DNA of 64,000 nt, taken from the NCBI GenBank assembly GCA_963749075.1, contig CAVVLJ010000017.1:832001-896000 (forward strand). Reading direction: 5' to 3'. Numbering within the stretch: position 1 is the first letter of the stretch; every line of letters starts with the position of its first letter. The position numbers and the translations under genes are program-made. Positions 43,243 through 51,415 of the stretch are shown piece after piece. The notes under the pieces are model-generated. The model worked only from the letters and a program-made list of their open reading frames with translations, did no database searches and had not been told where the DNA came from. This DNA comes from an uncultured Pseudomonadota bacterium. Its GTDB lineage: Bacteria; Pseudomonadota; Alphaproteobacteria; JACZXZ01.

Positions 43243-43305
43243 CAATTATACGTGATATAATTGTCCAATAAGCACGTTTGACACGTCCATTTCGGATATT
43301 ATCGT
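43243..43305. promoter_or_regulatory. AT-rich operator-like inverted repeat and probable promoter
   Basis: CAATTATA-CGTGA-TATAATTG (43243-43263); TTGACA (43278-43283) with TATCGT 16 nt downstream. Confidence 0.5.
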
Positions 43306-43419
43306 CATGAGGGGCGCCGCTGCGAGCTGGATCGCTTACGGGCGCCTTACAAGACCCGCCGAAGCGCAGTCTGCGCCCGGCGTCGCGCGTAGAAGGATAG
43401 AGAGCAAGCGAGGCCGCAC

Positions 43420-43608
43420 ATGCCGATCGAACCCCTTCGCAGTTGGCGCCATGCGGGCGACGAGCCCGCACTCCACGAAGTTCTCGCCGACCCGCTGGTG
43501 CATCTCGTGATGCGCCGCGACGGGATCACGGCCGGCGAATTGCAGAGCGCCATCGAGGGCGCACGCGCGAGCCTGCGGAGGGGTGTTTGTCCGTGCGCCG
43601 TTGCCTGA
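43420..43608 (+). CDS. Small conserved hypothetical protein
   Basis: EPALHEVLADPLVHLVMRRDG pattern recalled from small alphaproteobacterial proteins; GAGG RBS. Confidence 0.65.
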   Translation: MPIEPLRSWRHAGDEPALHEVLADPLVHLVMRRDGITAGELQSAIEGARASLRRGVCPCAVA

Positions 43609-43848
43609 GCGCGGGCCGGCCGAGCCGTGAGCGACGGGCCGCGCACACGTGGAAGTGAACGCGATTCCGCGCGCGCGGCCGCCTCGCCGCTTTCCGCCTC
43701 AGCGGCAAGTTGCTATCATTTGTCTCGAGTGCGCGCTCGTCCGGGCAGCGCCGGCCGACGGCATGGTTTCCTTGCGGCTGCGGCGCCAGTACTTTGAGCG
43801 CCGCGCTTCGGCCACCGCCAATCCGCCAGCCGCTCACGGAGGGTTCTG

Positions 43849-44598
43849 ATGGCGCAGCATGACGCATTCGGCCGCGCGCGCCGCGCTTTCCTGCGCCTCG
43901 CCGCCGCCACGGCGCTCATGGCCACGGCACGGCCGCTCGCCGCCTCCGCGCAATCGGCCGGCGCTGCCGCGCTCAAGATCGGCGTCATCGGCTCGGGCCG
44001 CCTCGGGGGCACGGTCGGCTCGCTGTGGGTCAAGGCGGGCCACCCGGTGCTGTTCTCCTCGCGCAAGCCCGAGGAGCTCAAGGGCCTCGTCGAGAGCCTC
44101 GGGCCGCTGGCGCGCGCCGGCACCGTGGCGGAGGCCATCGCATTCGGAGAGGCGATCCTCGTCGCCGTGCCCTACGCAGCACTACCGCAGCTCGGCCGCG
44201 ATTACGCCGCGGCACTCGCCGGCAAGGTGGTGCTCGACGCCTGCAATGCGATCGCCGCCCGCGACGGCGAGATCGCAAACGAGGCGAAGGAGAAAGGCGT
44301 CGGCCTGACCAGCGCCAAATACCTGCCGGGCGTGCGCCTGGTGCGCGCCTTCAACACCTTGTCCTACAGGGTCCTCTTGAGCGACGCGCACCGCGCCGGA
44401 GCGCCCGTGGCGATCCCCCTTGCCGGCGACGACCCCGCGGCGCTCAAGGTGGCCTCGCTTCTGGTGCGCGATGCCGGCTTCGATCCGGTGGTGGTGGGTC
44501 CGCTCGCGCGCGCCAGCGATTTTGCCAGCGGAACGCCGGTCTACCTGCAGGAGCTGACGGCGCCGGAGCTGCGTCGGCGCCTGTCGGTCAAAGAGTAA
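43849..44598 (+). CDS. Tat-signal NADP oxidoreductase (F420-dependent NADP reductase family)
   Basis: ARRAFL Tat motif and AxA site; KIGVIGSGRLG, FSSRKP, VAVPY, LDACN, LVRAFNT, AGDD. Confidence 0.88.
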   Translation: MAQHDAFGRARRAFLRLAAATALMATARPLAASAQSAGAAALKIGVIGSGRLGGTVGSLWVKAGHPVLFSSRKPEELKGLVESLGPLARAGTVAEAIAFGEAILVAVPYAALPQLGRDYAAALAGKVVLDACNAIAARDGEIANEAKEKGVGLTSAKYLPGVRLVRAFNTLSYRVLLSDAHRAGAPVAIPLAGDDPAALKVASLLVRDAGFDPVVVGPLARASDFASGTPVYLQELTAPELRRRLSVKE

Positions 44599-44605
44599 GC
44601 CCGCC

Positions 44606-45949
44606 ATGGCTGAGAGCGACGGCACCACCACCTTGCACCGCTGGGTCGCGCGGGCGGTTCCGGTGACGCCGGCGGAGCTCGCGGCACTGCTCTGGTCCTT
44701 CGCCTATTTCTTCTCGCTCCTCGCCGGCTACTACGTGCTGCGGCCGCTGCGCGACCAGATGGGCATCGCCGGCGGCGTGCGCAACCTGCCGTGGATGTTC
44801 ACCGCGACCTTCCTCGTGCTGCTCCTCGCCCAGCCGCTCTATGGCGCGCTCGTGGCGCGGCTGCCGCGCGCGCGCTTCATTCCCACCGTCTATCACTTCT
44901 TCGTCGTCAACCTCGCGGCCTTCTGGGTGCTCCTCACGCTCCACGTCGCCACCGTCGAGGTGGCGCGCGTCTTCTTCGTCTGGGTCAGCGTCTTCAACCT
45001 CTTCGCGATCACGGTGTTCTGGTCCTTCATGGCCAACATCTTCACGAGCGAGCAGGGCAAGCGCCTCTTCGGCTTCATCGGCGCCGGCGGCACCGCGGGA
45101 GCGCTCCTGGGGCCGATCATCACGATCTGGCTCTCGGTCCCGCTCGGGCCGGTCAATCTCCTCATCGCCGCGGCCGTCCTCCTCGAATTCGCCGTCCTGT
45201 GCGCGCGCCGCCTGGAGAGGGCCGCGCGTGCCGGGGGCCACGTGCCTGAAGCGCCGCGCGCGGCCGCAGCCACAGCACCCGACGCCGAGCAGGCGCGCAT
45301 CGGCGGCAGCGCCTTCGCCGGCCTCATCGAGGTCTGCCGCTCGCCCTATCTCCTCGGCATCGCCGCCTGGGTCAGCCTGCTCTCCTTCACCGGCACCTTC
45401 CTTTATTACCAGCAGGCGAACATCGTCTCGGCGACCATCCATGGCGCGGGCGCGCAGACGCGGCTCTTCGCCGGCATCGATCTTGCGGTCAGCCTTCTTA
45501 CGCTGGCGACGCAATCCTTCGCCACCGGGCGCCTCCTCAAGCGCTTCGGCATCGCACCGGCGGCGGCGGCACTGCCCGCCGTCTATGTCGTGGCCTTCTC
45601 CGTCTTGGCCGTCGTACCCGGCCTCGCCGCCGTGGTCTTCTTCCAGACCATCCAGCGCATGATGAATTTCGCGATCTCCAACCCGGCGCGGCAGGTCTTC
45701 TACACCGTGGTCGCGCGCGAGGAGAAGTACAAGGCGAAGAACCTCATCGACGTGGTCGTCTTCCGCGGCTCGGATGCGCTCTACGGCTGGCTCTTCCTCA
45801 GCCTGCAGACGCTCGGCCTCAAGCTCGCCGCGATCGCCGCCTTCGCCATCCCGGTGGCGCTCGGCTGGTTCGTGCTATCGGCAGCGCTCGGCCGCACGCA
45901 GGAGCGCCGCGCCGCACTCATTGCTCCGCAGCCGGCGCAAGGAGACTGA
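44606..45949 (+). CDS. MFS-fold NTP/NDP exchange transporter homologue (Npt/TLC, AAA family)
   Basis: YYVLRPLRD, FWSFMANIFTSEQGKRLFG, EEKYKAKNLIDVVVFRGSD; multi-TM. Confidence 0.8.
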   Translation: MAESDGTTTLHRWVARAVPVTPAELAALLWSFAYFFSLLAGYYVLRPLRDQMGIAGGVRNLPWMFTATFLVLLLAQPLYGALVARLPRARFIPTVYHFFVVNLAAFWVLLTLHVATVEVARVFFVWVSVFNLFAITVFWSFMANIFTSEQGKRLFGFIGAGGTAGALLGPIITIWLSVPLGPVNLLIAAAVLLEFAVLCARRLERAARAGGHVPEAPRAAAATAPDAEQARIGGSAFAGLIEVCRSPYLLGIAAWVSLLSFTGTFLYYQQANIVSATIHGAGAQTRLFAGIDLAVSLLTLATQSFATGRLLKRFGIAPAAAALPAVYVVAFSVLAVVPGLAAVVFFQTIQRMMNFAISNPARQVFYTVVAREEKYKAKNLIDVVVFRGSDALYGWLFLSLQTLGLKLAAIAAFAIPVALGWFVLSAALGRTQERRAALIAPQPAQGD

Positions 45950-45950
45950 C

Positions 45951-46865
45951 ATGACCCGCCTCACCAGACGCGATTTCACGGCGCTTGCCGCAGGGCTGGG
46001 TGCTGCCTCGCTGCTGCCGACGCTCGCCTCGGCACAGGGCTCTGCCCCAGCCGTCATTGCCAAGACCATTCCCTCGAGCGGCGAGCGCCTGCCGGCGGTC
46101 GGCCTCGGCACCTCGGGCGTCTTCGACGTAGGCAGCGACGCGGCAAAGCGCGCGGTCCTCGCCGAGGTGGTGCACAACCTCGTCGCCGGCGGTGGCAAGA
46201 TCATCGACACCGCCTCGACCTACGGCTCCTCCGAGGGGGTGGTGGGCGACCTCGTGGCCGCGGCCAAGCTGCGCAAGGACGTCTTCATCGCGACCAAGCT
46301 CGAGTCGCCGGACGCGGCCGAGCTCAAGCAGTCGCTCACGCGGCTGCATACCCCGCAGGTCGACCTCCTCCAGCTCCACAATGTCAACGAGAAAGGCCAG
46401 TCGCTCGCGCAGTTCCGCGACTGGAAATCCAAAGGCGTGTGCCGCTACATCGGCATCACGTCTACCTTCCACGGCGATTTCGGCGCCGTCGAGGCGGTGC
46501 TGCGGCGCGAGAAGCCGGATTTCGTGCAGATCGACTACTCGCTCGACGACCGCGAGGCGGAGAAGCGGGTGCTGCCGCTCGCCCTCGAGGTGAAGGCCGC
46601 CGTGCTGACCGCGCTGCCCTACGGCCGCGGCCGCCTCTTCCGCGCCGTGCACGGCAAGCCGCTGCCCGATTGGGCGAAGGAGTTCGACGCCGCGAGCTGG
46701 GGGCAATTCTTCCTCAAGTACCTCATCGGCAACGAGGCGGTGACGGCGGTCATTCCGGGCACCGCCGATCCGGCGCACATGAACGACAATCTGGGCGCCA
46801 TGCGCGGCCGCCTGCCCGACGCGGCCGAGCGCGCGCGCATGGTCGCGTTCGTGCAGTCGCTGTAA
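45951..46865 (+). CDS. Tat-signal aldo/keto reductase
   Basis: TRRDF Tat motif; VGLGT, IDTASTYG, FIATK, DLLQLHN, VIPGT; starts 1 nt after the transporter stop. Confidence 0.9.
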   Translation: MTRLTRRDFTALAAGLGAASLLPTLASAQGSAPAVIAKTIPSSGERLPAVGLGTSGVFDVGSDAAKRAVLAEVVHNLVAGGGKIIDTASTYGSSEGVVGDLVAAAKLRKDVFIATKLESPDAAELKQSLTRLHTPQVDLLQLHNVNEKGQSLAQFRDWKSKGVCRYIGITSTFHGDFGAVEAVLRREKPDFVQIDYSLDDREAEKRVLPLALEVKAAVLTALPYGRGRLFRAVHGKPLPDWAKEFDAASWGQFFLKYLIGNEAVTAVIPGTADPAHMNDNLGAMRGRLPDAAERARMVAFVQSL

Positions 46866-47009
46866 GCGGCGCTGACGGACGGCGGCGGCAGGCACGGCGC
46901 CGCCCGTTGCGGATATCTCCGAACGTAACTATGTTGCTGCTGCGGCGTCGCCCGCGCCGGGGCATCCGCCGCGCCTCGGCAATTCGCAACTGACACTATG
47001 GGAAGCGCC

Positions 47010-47522
47010 ATGAGAACGACCGCAATGCGCCTTGTGCCGCTCCTCTCCCTCATCCTGGTCCTCTCGGCAGCGCCGATCGCGCGCGCGGCGGCGCCGGATC
47101 CCATGCTGGTGAACCGGGTCGTGGCACTCGTGAACGAGGCCCGCCAGCAACAGGGGCTGGCTCCCGTGGTCATCAACGGGAAGCTCATGCAGGTCGCCCA
47201 GGCCTTTGCCGAGGATCTCGCGAGCCGCCGCACGCTCGCGCACACCGACGCAGAGGGCCGCGACATCGGCCAGCGCTTCATGGCCGCCGACTACGTCTAT
47301 TCGCTGGCCAACGAGGCGGTCTACGGCGGCACCTCCAGCCCCGACGAGGCCGTGGCCACGCTGCTCTCGCAAGCCGGCAACCGCGACGCGCTCCTCAATC
47401 CGGCCGCTCACGACGTGGGCGTCGGCTATGCCTTCCGGCCCGACGACACGGCGAACCTCGGCCTCGGCTCCTATTGGGTGATCGATCTCGGCACTCAGGT
47501 CGAGCGCGGCCCGGGCCCGTGA
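47010..47522 (+). CDS. CAP/SCP-domain secreted protein
   Basis: Signal peptide; LVNEARQQQGLAP..LMQVAQAFAEDL..LAHT..ALLNP..VGVG..YWVIDLG. Confidence 0.82.
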   Translation: MRTTAMRLVPLLSLILVLSAAPIARAAAPDPMLVNRVVALVNEARQQQGLAPVVINGKLMQVAQAFAEDLASRRTLAHTDAEGRDIGQRFMAADYVYSLANEAVYGGTSSPDEAVATLLSQAGNRDALLNPAAHDVGVGYAFRPDDTANLGLGSYWVIDLGTQVERGPGP

Positions 47523-47537
47523 GCCGCCGGCGCGCCC

Positions 47538-48647
47538 TCATTTCGTGACGGTCACCGGCGCGCTCAGATAGCGCTCCACCACCGCCATGTCGGGATCGCA
47601 GCCGAGGCCCGGCCCCTCGGGCACCGCGACCTTGCCGCCCTTCGCTTGCAGCGCGGCGCCGAAGGGGCTCGCCTCGAGCTCGAGATAGAGGCGCTCGAAG
47701 GGCGCCTCGTGGGGAAGCGTTGCGGCGAGATGCAGCGAGGCGAGATAACCCGGGCCGAAATAGGCGCAGTGCGGCACCAGGCGCACGCCGAACGCCTCGG
47801 CGAGCGCCACCACCTTCCGCATCTCGCTGATACCGCCGATCTTGGTGACGCTCGGCTGCGCCACGTCGATGGCACCCGCCTCGAACATGTGGCGGAAATC
47901 GTGGAGGCCGCTCGCGTTCTCGCCGGCGGCGAGCGGGATGCCGCACGCGCGCACGCGCGCCAGGCCGCGGTGATCCTCGGGCGGCCACACCGGCTCCTCG
48001 AGCCAGGCGAGACGAAGGGGGAGGAGCGCTTCGGCCATCTCGCGCGCCTCGGCCACCGACCATGGGCAGTTGGTATCGAGCATCAAGGCGACATCGGCGC
48101 CGAGCGCCTCGCGCGCGGCGGCGACCGGCGCCAGCGTGATCTCGTGGAGCTTGACGGCGCGGTAGCCCTCCTGGGCCGCGCGCGCCGCCGTCTCGCGCAC
48201 GCTGCGCGGCTCGCCGTAGCGCAGCAGGCTCGCATAGGCGCTGAGCTCGCGCCGCGCGCTGCCGCCGAGGAGCTCGAAGAGCGGCCGGCCGCAGCGCTTG
48301 CCGGCAATGTCCCAGAGGGCGATGTCGATCGCCGAGAGGCCGTAGACGACCGGGCCGTTGCGTCCGAAGAGGTGGAGCTTCTGCGCCATCTCCGCCATGA
48401 GCGCCGTGATGTCGCCCGCCTCGCGGCCGATGAAGTGGGGAGCGATCAGCGTATCGATGGCCGTCTTGGTGGCGGGAGCTACGGCATGCCCGAAGCCCTC
48501 GCCCCAGCCGCTCAAGCCCTCGTCGGTCTCGAGCTTGACGAGAAGCATGGCCATGCGGCTCCAGCTTTGCCCCGCGAGCATCTGGGTCGCGGCACCGGTG
48601 GCGAAGGGAATATGGGCGAGGAGGGTCGAGATCGCCGTGATCTTCAT
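47538..48647 (-). CDS. Mandelate racemase/muconate lactonizing enzyme family protein
   Basis: ETDEGLSGWGE, SAIDIALWDIAGK, LMLDTN, WLEEP, AAGEN, QPSVTKIGG. Confidence 0.9.
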   Translation of the reverse strand: MKITAISTLLAHIPFATGAATQMLAGQSWSRMAMLLVKLETDEGLSGWGEGFGHAVAPATKTAIDTLIAPHFIGREAGDITALMAEMAQKLHLFGRNGPVVYGLSAIDIALWDIAGKRCGRPLFELLGGSARRELSAYASLLRYGEPRSVRETAARAAQEGYRAVKLHEITLAPVAAAREALGADVALMLDTNCPWSVAEAREMAEALLPLRLAWLEEPVWPPEDHRGLARVRACGIPLAAGENASGLHDFRHMFEAGAIDVAQPSVTKIGGISEMRKVVALAEAFGVRLVPHCAYFGPGYLASLHLAATLPHEAPFERLYLELEASPFGAALQAKGGKVAVPEGPGLGCDPDMAVVERYLSAPVTVTK

Positions 48648-48833
48648 GGGGCGGCAGCCTCCCTTGTGCGCGCCGGGGCGCGCGGCGGGCGAGGATAGCC
48701 CATTCGAATCGAGGCTCGCCAGCGCCCCGCCGACGAGGGCGGCACGATTCAGCTCCGCTGGCGTTCGTGCTAGACTCGCCTGCCCGCGGCCCGTTCGGGT
48801 CGCTGCGGCCGGTCTCGGCAGACGGGGGGAAGC

Positions 48834-49706
48834 ATGTGGCGGATCATGTTGGGCATCGTGGTTGCAGCACTCCTCTTGGGTGAGGCCAACGCCCAGCAGC
48901 AGCAGAAGCGGGCGGCAGCCGCCTGGATCACCGACAAGAAGGGCTGCCGCGTGTGGGACCCGGAGCCCAAGCCGGACGAGAGCGCCGCCTGGGACGGGCC
49001 TTGCCCGAACAACGTCGCCAGCGGAAAGGGCGTGCTGCAATGGTATCAGGGCGGCAAGCCGACCGATCGCTATGAGGGCGAGTACGGCGATGGGCGGCCC
49101 AACGGCAAGGGCGTCTATATCTGGGCGAACGGCAATCGCTACGAGGGCGAGTTCAAGAACGCGCTGCCGAGCGGCCACGGCGTCGTCGCGATGGCGAGCG
49201 GCTCGCGCTACGAGGGCGAGTGGGCGGAGGGCAGACCTAACGGCCACGGCGTCTATCAATGGTCGAACGGCAACCGCTACGAGGGCGAATTCAAGAACGC
49301 GCTGCCGAACGGCGAGGGCGTCGCCACCACGACAAGCGGCTTCCGCTACGAGGGCGAGTGGAAGGACGGGCTGCCCAACGGCCACGGCGTCAAAGCCTGG
49401 GCGAGCGGCGAGCGCTACGACGGCGAGCTCAAGAACAATCAGCGCAACGGGCCGGGCGTCTTCGTCTATGCCGACGGCAGCCGCTACGACGGCGAATGGC
49501 AGGACGGGCGCCGCAACGGCCGCGGCGTCTACGCCTGGACGAACGGCAACCGCTACGAGGGCGAGTGGAAGGACGATCGCGCCGAGGGTCAGGGAACCTA
49601 CCGCACGGCTGCGGGCGAGGTTTTCACCGGCACGTGGAAGGCCGGCTGCTTCCGGGAGGGCAAGCGCAGTGCCTGGGTTGACATCGCGAAGCCGGCATGC
49701 AAGTGA
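48834..49706 (+). CDS. Secreted MORN-repeat protein (one module)
   Basis: Signal peptide; tandem YEGE(W/F)KxGxPNGxG repeats. Confidence 0.88.
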   Translation: MWRIMLGIVVAALLLGEANAQQQQKRAAAAWITDKKGCRVWDPEPKPDESAAWDGPCPNNVASGKGVLQWYQGGKPTDRYEGEYGDGRPNGKGVYIWANGNRYEGEFKNALPSGHGVVAMASGSRYEGEWAEGRPNGHGVYQWSNGNRYEGEFKNALPNGEGVATTTSGFRYEGEWKDGLPNGHGVKAWASGERYDGELKNNQRNGPGVFVYADGSRYDGEWQDGRRNGRGVYAWTNGNRYEGEWKDDRAEGQGTYRTAAGEVFTGTWKAGCFREGKRSAWVDIAKPACK

Positions 49707-49774
49707 CTGCGGCGCGCGGCACGGGGGCGGGGCCACCGCTTGCCGCCGCGGGTATGCGTGAGAAGAGACGGCGC

Positions 49775-51415
49775 ATGAGGCGTATCGCATTGGGCTTTGC
49801 CTTGGCCGTCTCGGCCCTTGCGGTGTGGGCGTCGAGCCGGGCCGAGGCGCAGCAGCCGGCGGAGCCTCAACCGGGATGGATGGCGGACGCCAAGGGATGC
49901 CAGGTGTGGAACCCGGACCCGGCGCCCAATCAGAGCTTCAGCTGGAGCGGCGCCTGCAAGGACGGCTTCGCCGACGGCACGGGCGTGCTGCAGTGGTACG
50001 AGAACGGCAAGCCCACCGACCGCTACGAGGGCGGCTTCAGCACCGGCCACGCCAACGGCCATGCGATCTATGTCTGGGAGAACGGCGACCGCTTCGAGGG
50101 CGAGTTCAAGGACGACCTGCGCAACGGCTATGGCGTGGTCAAGTTCGCCGACGGCGACGTTTACAAGGGCATGTTCAAGGACGACCGGCGCCAGGGCTAC
50201 GGCACCGTCGTGTTCTCCAACGGCGACAGCTACGAAGGCGAATGGAAGGACGGGCTGGCCAACGGGCAAGGCACGCGCAAGGATGCCGACGGCGAGGTCT
50301 TCACCGGCATCTGGGTGAAGGGCTGCTTCCGCAAGGGCGACCGCCTGGCCTGGATCGGCGCCGACGAGGCGGACTGCAGGAGGATGCCGCAGTATCAGCA
50401 GCCGACGCAGGAAGCCCAAGCGCCGACGGCCCAGGCATCGCCGGCGCAAGGACAGCCGGCGCAGCCCGCGCAGGCAGCGCCCGCCCAGCCCACGCCCACG
50501 CAGACGCCGCCCGCGCAAGCGGCGCAGGCGCAGCCTCAGCCCGCTCAGCCGCAGCCTGCCGCGCAACCGCCGCAACAGCCCGCGCCGCAGCCGGCGCCTC
50601 AGGCTGGCCAGACGCCATCGGTGCAGGTCGAGACCCTGCCGCCGCCGTCTCAGGCGCAGCCGGGACAGGCACCGCCGCCTCAGGCACAGCCCCCTCAGGC
50701 ACAGCCCCCTCAGGCACAACCGCCTCAGGCGCCGCCACCTCCGCAAGTGCAGCCGCAGCAGCCGGCTGAGGCGCCGCCGGCTCAGCCGCAAGCGCCGCCG
50801 CAGCAGGTCCAGGCCCCTGCCCCGCCACCGCCGGTCGCGTGGATCGCCACAACGGCCGGATGCCGGGTGCGCAACCCGGAGCCGAAGCCGAACGAAAGCG
50901 TGAGCTGGAGCGGCCGCTGCGCAAACGGCGTCGCCACGGGGACCGGCCGGCTGCAATGGTTCCTCGCCGGCCGCCCGAGCGAGCGCTATGACGGCCTCAT
51001 GAGCGAGGGCCGCCCGGACGGGCGCGGCATCTATGTCTGGGCCAACGGCACCCGCTACGAGGGCGAGTTCAAGGACGGCGCCCAGAGCGGCCGCGGCAGC
51101 AAGCTGTGGAGCAACGGCGACCGCTACGACGGCGAGTTCAACGACAGCAAGCGGGACGGCAAGGGGCTCTTCGTATGGGTCAGCGGCGACCTCTACGACG
51201 GCGAATGGAAGGCCGGCGTGCGCAGCGGCGAGGGCGTCTATGTCTGGGTCGGCGGCAATCGCTATCAGGGCGCCTGGAGCGACGGCAAGGCGAACGGCAC
51301 GGGCACCTTTACCGAGGCGGGCGGCGAGATCTACTCGGGCAACTGGTCGCAGGGCTGCTTCCGCGACGGCCAGCGCTGGGCCGCGGTCGGAGCGGATCCG
51401 GCCGCCTGCAAGTGA
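49775..51415 (+). CDS. Secreted protein with two MORN-repeat modules and a Pro/Gln-rich linker
   Basis: Signal peptide; MORN repeats on both sides of a long P/Q/A low-complexity linker. Confidence 0.88.
   Translation: MRRIALGFALAVSALAVWASSRAEAQQPAEPQPGWMADAKGCQVWNPDPAPNQSFSWSGACKDGFADGTGVLQWYENGKPTDRYEGGFSTGHANGHAIYVWENGDRFEGEFKDDLRNGYGVVKFADGDVYKGMFKDDRRQGYGTVVFSNGDSYEGEWKDGLANGQGTRKDADGEVFTGIWVKGCFRKGDRLAWIGADEADCRRMPQYQQPTQEAQAPTAQASPAQGQPAQPAQAAPAQPTPTQTPPAQAAQAQPQPAQPQPAAQPPQQPAPQPAPQAGQTPSVQVETLPPPSQAQPGQAPPPQAQPPQAQPPQAQPPQAPPPPQVQPQQPAEAPPAQPQAPPQQVQAPAPPPPVAWIATTAGCRVRNPEPKPNESVSWSGRCANGVATGTGRLQWFLAGRPSERYDGLMSEGRPDGRGIYVWANGTRYEGEFKDGAQSGRGSKLWSNGDRYDGEFNDSKRDGKGLFVWVSGDLYDGEWKAGVRSGEGVYVWVGGNRYQGAWSDGKANGTGTFTEAGGEIYSGNWSQGCFRDGQRWAAVGADPAACK
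50678..50730 (+). repeat. 15-bp tandem repeat (PQAQP) in the linker
   Basis: CCTCAGGCACAGCCC twice plus degenerate copies. Confidence 0.75.

Follow-up and report, generated by a model that had tools for sequence, protein, structure and literature searches.

The window analysed here, a 64,000-nt stretch from an uncultured alphaproteobacterium (contig CAVVLJ010000017.1, positions 832,001–896,000), carries three plus-strand genes that form one operon-like module. Two oxidoreductases with signals for twin-arginine translocation (Tat) flank a membrane carrier which, to judge from its modelled fold and its motifs, is a distant branch of the nucleotide transporters (NTT/TLC) within the major facilitator superfamily (MFS) and not a canonical member. 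The reading favoured here, tentatively and by analogy with these transporters, is that the carrier moves NADP(H), or a similar nucleotide, for enzymes of the periplasm. The arrangement exceeds chance, as it recurs at 70 of 80 related loci with the twin-arginine (RR) motifs almost always kept. The genome is 5.49 Mb in size and 96% complete, and the DNA of the window also occurs in soil-metagenome sequencing runs, all of those listed being of DNA and none of RNA.

The module consists of open reading frames (ORFs) at 43849–44598 (249 aa), 44606–45949 (447 aa) and 45774–46865, the last of which has a plausible start at the ATG at 45951 (MTRLTRRDF...), giving a protein of 304 aa. The first encodes an NADP-binding oxidoreductase similar to F420:NADPH oxidoreductase (FNO) and STEAP, hereafter the FNO-like protein, with an N-terminal twin-arginine signal (assigned by PF03807, structural model and alignment). 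The second is the NTT/TLC-like MFS carrier with 12 transmembrane helices (assigned by Pfam, fold and motifs), and the third (45951–46865) is an aldo/keto reductase (AKR), again with an N-terminal twin-arginine signal (assigned by PF00248 and alignment). The ORF coordinates leave 7 nt between the first and second genes and 1 nt between the second and third, confirming the tight three-gene arrangement of the original prediction, which was made from the sequence without database searches. A GGAGG motif resembling a ribosome-binding site can be read 6 nt 5′ of the first ATG (43838–43842, plus strand). Neither a promoter consensus nor a terminator was found in a scan of 43300–47600, a result of little weight at 70% GC, and NCBIfam had no specific addition to make for the three proteins.

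Both enzymes begin with the elements of a Tat signal. The ARRAFL motif noticed earlier in the first ORF and the TRRDF motif in the third are present, and after each come hydrophobic residues and then an ASA-Q site. The N-termini read MAQHDAFGRARRAFLRLAAATALMATARPLAASA-/-QS and MTRLTRRDFTALAAGLGAASLLPTLASA-/-QG, and both show the three elements (RR, hydrophobic stretch, AxA site). Signal peptides were judged by hand and by regular expression, with inferred cleavage sites; they are predicted to span residues 1–34 of the FNO-like protein (43849–43950, plus strand; RRAFL, hydrophobic h-region, ASA-/-Q) and residues 1–28 of the AKR (45951–46034, plus strand; TRRDF, h-region, ASA-/-Q). RR, h-region and AxA-like site are all found in each of the 58 full-length FNO-like homologues, where R12 is invariant. 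For the AKR, 55 full-length homologues were compared: RR is kept in 53 and an AxA-like site in 52, and R6–R7 are invariant in the 35 sequences that were aligned. The two AKR homologues without RR are those of locus L036, where the start is wrongly assigned, and L060, which lies on the other strand. Conservation of the Tat motif, on which the original prediction had staked a possible refutation, is therefore seen in both families, and the genome encodes TatC (PF00902, 246.8 bits; contig C14 of the window's genome, G000). From these sequence features, the FNO-like protein and the AKR are very probably exported.

Arg-rich N-terminal extensions are common in ORFs of high GC, and the RR N-termini might instead be anchors or untranslated leaders, leaving the enzymes in the cytoplasm or at the membrane face, where they would use the ordinary NADPH pool. 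This seems very improbable. The RR pair occupies invariant columns and is followed by the hydrophobic stretch and AxA-like site in the proportions just given; an N-terminus of the RR type is missing from four of the genome's six AKR paralogues; and in two homologues the signal is of Sec type, as would be expected if export itself is under selection.

The family assignments proposed earlier for the two enzymes hold. The FNO-like protein, taken then for a Rossmann-fold NADP oxidoreductase, scores above the Pfam cut-off for F420_oxidored (PF03807, 54.8 bits), and the Rossmann GxGxxG motif (G48, G50, G53) is invariant. S70–S71 are nearly so, and we take this region to provide Ser/Arg for the 2′-phosphate and hence a preference for NADP. 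Relatives found by sequence in the PDB are 4huj (SMa0349), 2raf, STEAP3 and FNO, and the best folds for the model, which has a predicted local distance difference test score (pLDDT) of 88.4, are 4huj, STEAP3 (2vns) and F420:NADPH oxidoreductase (5n2i). Residues 41–249 have pLDDT above 90 and residues 1–40 a low one, as expected of a signal peptide. The AKR, also named as such in the original prediction, is above the cut-off for Aldo_ket_red (PF00248, 88 bits) and has 6kik and 5dan as PDB relatives by sequence. D86, Y91, K116 and H143, the catalytic Asp-Tyr-Lys-His tetrad of these enzymes, are invariant in 35 of 35 aligned sequences, so that the tetrad is intact.

Two more RR-bearing genes of these kinds occur on the same contig, outside the window, and neither of them is beside the carrier. 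One is a second Tat-motif FNO-like paralogue (G000:C17:949720-950439; ARRDFL, 57% identical) and the other a distant AKR-like gene with RRRTLL (G000:C17:352435-353364). At a related locus (L044:1741-3786), the long ORF 5′ of the carrier encodes, in a single frame, a TPM_phosphatase domain and a shortened F420_oxidored domain, as could result from gene fusion or from decay of an FNO-like gene.

The carrier is a single-copy gene in the genome. Its Pfam score for MFS_1 (PF07690) is 34.3 bits, above the cut-off of 33.4, and MFS_1 is matched by all 35 of its close relatives. The TLC family (PF03219) is matched at E ≤ 0.01 by 16 of these 35, and at 21 bits or more by 34 of 60 carrier-family representatives at 50% identity (best 56.5 bits), the 60 having been drawn from 150 listed. 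A word-indexed search with the carrier gave more than 7,000 matching proteins, the best 120 of which are 71–85% identical, include a protein of Rhodoferax sediminis, and have automatic names such as ‘NTP/NDP exchange transporter’, ‘MFS transporter’ and ‘AAA family ATP:ADP antiporter’. The family is large: a profile built from the 35 close relatives matches 12,937 clusters (50% identity) at E ≤ 0.001 and 2,273 at E ≤ 1e-30. Searches of the PDB with the carrier sequence and with the profile matched no chain, so that the carrier is linked to solved NTTs through fold comparison only. The AlphaFold model (pLDDT 84.1, predicted template modelling score 0.85) has 12 long helices and a central loop. 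In Foldseek it ranks AtNTT1 and NTT1 of Chlamydia pneumoniae first (1.7e-10 to 2.8e-9), against 5e-6 for LacY. The NTT entries also lead in VIA-align comparisons with the model (9j3l, Z 35.4, root-mean-square deviation 2.9 Å over 415 residues; 9j3m, Z 35.3; 9j3n, Z 31.8), the next-best MFS protein reaching Z 27.5.

Sequence motifs point the same way. Six canonical TLC proteins, taken from bacteria of the same class with small genomes, were aligned with 14 carrier-family members. The alignment has 15 invariant columns, among them E24, Y42, R46, W139, R153, K374 and R387, and E372, K376, K378 and D382 are nearly invariant. The motifs common to both groups (Y..LR..(K/R)D, FW.F...KR, S.YL and E.K.K...D....R) fall in transmembrane helices (TM) 1, 4/5, 7 and 11. 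The signature charged residues of AtNTT1 are K155, E245, E385 and K527 (PMC3306366, PMC10654386); by position alone, K374/K376/K378 of TM11 and E149 may match K527 and E245. A TM7 Glu of the canonical TLC proteins aligns with a Tyr in the carrier clade. Residue 144 of the carrier in the window is Asn (FMANIF), while at least 90% of 119 family representatives have Asp (FMADLF) there.

Linkage of the three genes was followed at 80 carrier loci from species-representative genomes, counting same-strand genes within 1.3 kb of the carrier; some contigs are short, and the counts are lower bounds. The carrier has both the FNO-like gene and the AKR gene as neighbours at 43 of the 80 loci, the FNO-like gene only at 17 and the AKR gene only at 10. 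The conserved linkage that the original prediction called for is thus present, with at least one enzyme beside the carrier at 70 loci. The genomes belong to the Alpha- and Betaproteobacteria and are mostly metagenome-assembled, together with isolates of Variovorax and Xenophilus. Start and stop codons overlap at most junctions of the module in these relatives. At 41 of 44 loci the carrier is better conserved than either enzyme; its median identity is 71.8%, compared with 64.2% for the AKR and 58.6% for the FNO-like protein. Thirty-one of the 80 loci are listed without one or both enzymes and have varied neighbours (TctC, FAA hydrolase, BioB-like, FeoB and others); none of those detected is another exported NAD(P) enzyme, but genes may have been missed here by a filter on third-position GC of the ORFs. 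One locus, L074, is labelled Gemmatimonadota, yet its genome (G406) groups with the Pseudomonadota sample, which may point to an error in the label or in the binning.

A broader view comes from an even sample across the phylum Pseudomonadota, comprising 401 genomes. The carrier-family profile matches 55 of them at E ≤ 1e-20, and 20 matches, in 17 genomes, score at least 487 bits. Sixteen of these 20 loci were examined, all but those of G000 and of three further genomes from one genus. At 14 of the 16, a same-strand exported NADP-type enzyme of AKR, FNO-like or short-chain dehydrogenase/reductase (SDR) fold adjoins the carrier: an AKR with RR at 10 (two of them with an FNO-like gene as well), an SDR with RR at three and an SDR with a Sec-like signal at one. 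The SDR partners belong to the NCBIfam subfamilies PRK05854 and PRK06197. Signal-bearing FNO-like proteins (at least 260 bits) are found in eight of the 401 genomes, five of which belong to one genus, and all eight genomes have the carrier. The carrier is absent from the genomes that hold a signal-less paralogue (G069) and four weaker FNO-like matches beginning after the signal region. The Tat-AKR clade is found in 37 of the 401 genomes, and 15 of the 17 carrier genomes have it. The original prediction had looked to a difference in coupling between enzymes with and without a Tat signal. Such coupling is evident for the FNO-like protein and extends only partly to the AKR, many of whose genomes have no carrier (see below).

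The proposal for the function of the module starts from what is observed: how the genes are ordered, the families of their products, the conservation of signal peptides and of linkage, and a carrier fold like that of the NTTs. AKR, FNO-like and SDR enzymes share only their class of cofactor and their destination, and the NTT relatives of the carrier transport nucleotides, so that the simplest reading is that the carrier moves NADP(H). The FNO-like protein and the AKR would fold in the cytoplasm and leave by the Tat pathway for the periplasm; the carrier, in the inner membrane, would transport a nicotinamide nucleotide, most likely in an exchange of NADPH for NADP+; and this exchange would keep the exported oxidoreductases, which depend on NADP(H), cycling in the periplasm. 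What we infer in this scheme is export itself, what the carrier transports and in which direction, and on which substrates the two enzymes act. NADPH and NADP+ differ by one negative charge, so the membrane potential could drive the exchange. Extracytoplasmic NADPH would then power Tat-exported AKR, SDR and FNO-like reductases, and in the reverse direction the exchange would gather reducing power from periplasmic oxidations. That free-living Alpha- and Betaproteobacteria keep a working supply of NADP(H) outside the cytoplasm by means of an NTT-derived NADPH/NADP+ exchanger is a more specific proposal, which we put forward with slightly less confidence than the transport of NADP(H) or a similar nucleotide as such.

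Several points weigh against transport of NADP(H) by the carrier. A free pool would have periplasmic phosphatases and nucleotidases working against it, as well as loss through porins. Neither enzyme gene neighbours the carrier at 10 of the 80 related loci, and no exported enzyme adjoins it at two of the 16 loci of the even sample; in one of these, genome G064, the carrier has 3.3 kb away an FNO-like gene whose product bears a Sec-type signal. More distant clades of the carrier family have neighbours other than exported NADP enzymes. The ATP/ADP-translocase type ascribed to the transporter by the original prediction is upheld by fold and motifs, but as a distant relationship only: the carrier and the canonical TLC proteins are only 16–18% identical, and its TLC score of 19.5 bits, confined to residues 132–178, is below the Pfam cut-off of 21. 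The Lys in TM1 of the canonical proteins is an invariant Arg in the carrier clade (R49). The K155R mutant of AtNTT1 loses ADP binding (PMC3306366), which is relevant to R49 if the TM1 Lys corresponds to K155.

The strongest argument against a strict need for the carrier is that the AKR clade is without it in most of the genomes that have this clade, namely 22 of the 37 (21 with no match and one with a weak match of 890 aa). Twenty of these 22 genomes were examined at the AKR locus. RR is kept in 18 of the 20 AKRs, and none of the 20 has a carrier or an FNO-like gene within a distance of 3.5 kb. At 12 of the 20, the AKR gene is directly followed, with a gap of 0–28 nt or an overlap, by a gene for a membrane protein of about 220 aa with about six predicted helices (L133:4523-5179, L136:4433-5116, L139:2918-3568 on the minus strand, L142:4511-5194, L143:2832-3545 on the minus strand, L144:4510-5172 and six more loci). 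Five of six such proteins that were scanned match DUF6064 (PF19540), a family that was searched for and not found in the genome of the window. These loci suggest that the Tat-AKRs of the clade can work without a carrier, and that the Tat-AKR seems to be paired with a membrane protein of either of two unrelated kinds, the carrier or DUF6064. This pairing stands as a result whatever the carrier moves, and no conserved family of Tat-exported AKRs paired with a membrane protein was found in the literature searched.

The absence of the carrier from most genomes of the Tat-AKR clade keeps alive a rival modelled on the glucose-fructose oxidoreductase (GFOR) of Zymomonas mobilis, whose NADP is non-dissociable. 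GFOR is the known example among Tat substrates of an enzyme with bound NADP (passages of PMC13673990, a 2026 review of the Tat pathway). Substrates with tightly bound NADP need no supply of cofactor. The module enzymes might likewise keep NADP(H) tightly bound and turn over either by alternating between two substrates (ping-pong) or by isomerising one without net redox change, and the carrier would then move their substrate or product, such as a carbonyl compound, a sugar derivative or a lipid-like molecule. Operons of an enzyme and an MFS transporter mostly serve a common substrate, as is generally known; the DUF6064 protein that often accompanies the carrier-less AKRs is not like a nucleotide carrier; and the departure of the clade from canonical NTTs in TM1 is in keeping with another cargo. 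We nevertheless regard this alternative as unlikely, if the most serious of those considered. Three unrelated folds alternate beside one highly conserved carrier, which a common cofactor explains more easily than a common substrate; the carrier has diverged less than the enzymes it would serve; and its nearest solved folds are nucleotide carriers. No structural feature for non-dissociable NADP is known in these enzymes, and none was sought.

Transport of NADP(H) has also to be weighed against a different nucleotide or anionic cofactor as the cargo (ATP/ADP, a flavin, F420 or a nucleotide sugar) and against scavenging of external nucleotides; the linkage to the enzymes would then stem from co-regulation, for example in envelope stress, rather than from direct delivery to them. 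The characterised NTTs do carry ATP/ADP, other nucleotides or NAD, as passages of PMC5381601 describe, and a related clade of carriers scoring about 220 bits adjoins a ManC-like nucleotidyl-transferase gene. True FNOs bind F420, which is listed, with the NADP of GFOR, among the cofactors of Tat substrates in passages of the review cited above (PMC13673990). The genome encodes CofE, the F420-0:gamma-glutamyl ligase (PF01996, 267 bits; G000:C23:74683-75342), and the alphaproteobacterium of the window may thus make coenzyme F420. However, CofE is found in only two of five other module-bearing genomes, and F420 was rejected as a general cofactor of the module. Import of ATP is not evidently needed by a free-living bacterium with a genome of this size, and overlapping start and stop codons and linkage across two proteobacterial classes point beyond loose co-regulation. 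A cargo of this other kind is accordingly considered improbable, and only a failure of the RR N-termini to act in export is held to be less probable.

The more distant carrier clades and the surroundings of the module in the window were also inspected. Carriers scoring 370–420 bits (L098, L100, L101, L103) adjoin a divergently transcribed GMC oxidoreductase gene or a beta-lactamase-family gene, with DUF4442 nearby, and no exported NADP enzyme is present at these four loci. The clade at about 220 bits (L104–L121, for example L110:3552-4823 and L111:3542-4807) comes from one genus with 46–55% GC, and is flanked by a gene for a protein of about 1,100 aa and by genes whose products have ManC-like (mannose-1-phosphate guanylyltransferase) and AmiC-like (AMIN-domain amidase) N-termini. 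The same genus also holds a carrier paralogue of about 180 bits. On the 3′ side of the module in the window are genes for a secreted CAP/YkwD-family protein (46998–47522, plus strand) and an enolase of the mandelate racemase/muconate-lactonising type (47538–48680, minus strand); both are syntenic only in the nearest relative (L001) and are therefore placed outside the module. Beyond them, the plus-strand ORFs 48834–49706 and 49697–51415 encode proteins with hydrophobic N-termini and many G-x-Y-x-G-E/D-W repeats, MORN-like by eye, and the second of these has two blocks of repeats separated by a long Pro/Gln/Ala-rich linker.

To our knowledge, the periplasm is usually held to lack NAD(P)H, and the few NADP enzymes located there keep their cofactor bound. 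If an NTT-family carrier does move NADP(H), it would give exported NADP(H)-dependent enzymes of three folds the means to turn over, and would provide a first role for many uncharacterised NTT homologues of free-living bacteria. An NADPH/NADP+ exchanger, if real, would overturn the view of a periplasm without pyridine-nucleotide metabolism, and the bacteria that carry the module include many soil and freshwater Proteobacteria. What is new here is the SDR partners in the even sample, the strict co-occurrence of signal-bearing FNO-like proteins with the carrier, the Tat-AKR genomes without a carrier, and the DUF6064 partner. Full-text literature searches returned no relevant paper on a Tat-exported or periplasmic AKR or on a periplasmic supply of NAD(P)H.

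Among known systems, the nearest to the carrier are the NTT/TLC proteins (PF03219, TC 2.A.12), represented by AtNTT1, CpNTT1, the Tlc proteins of Rickettsiales, PamNTT4 and Npt1. They share with it the 12-helix MFS fold and the motifs described above; the carrier is as distant from them in sequence as already noted, about 60–80 residues shorter, and found in a free-living soil bacterium of 5.5 Mb, whereas the canonical TLC proteins of the same class come from genomes of 0.5–2.5 Mb. Passages of Major, Embley and Williams (2017, PMC5381601) describe NTT-domain proteins as widespread in free-living Proteobacteria and other phyla with no function assigned, report that PamNTT4 and Npt1 of C. trachomatis transport NAD, and suggest NAD transport for PamNTT4-like clades. 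The passages of that paper on operons, neighbours and the periplasm make no mention of Tat enzymes as neighbours, and the linkage to exported NADP enzymes found here is not reported in them.

The enzymes have their own counterparts. GFOR is a Tat-exported, periplasmic, NADP-dependent enzyme (cited in PMC13673990), as is proposed for the module enzymes; it differs from them in belonging to the Gfo/Idh/MocA family, in keeping its NADP bound and in having no dedicated carrier. The best solved sequence matches of the AKR are reductases of the 2,5-diketo-D-gluconate type (6kik, 5dan), which are cytoplasmic, whereas the clade of the module AKR, with the D-Y-K-H tetrad likewise intact, bears a conserved Tat signal. 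The nearest solved folds and sequences to the FNO-like protein are the oxidoreductase domain of STEAP and FNO, which have the same NADP-binding Rossmann motif. Unlike STEAP, the FNO-like protein is a separate, signal-bearing soluble protein with no haem membrane domain fused to it, and unlike FNO it occurs in genomes among which F420 biosynthesis is not general.

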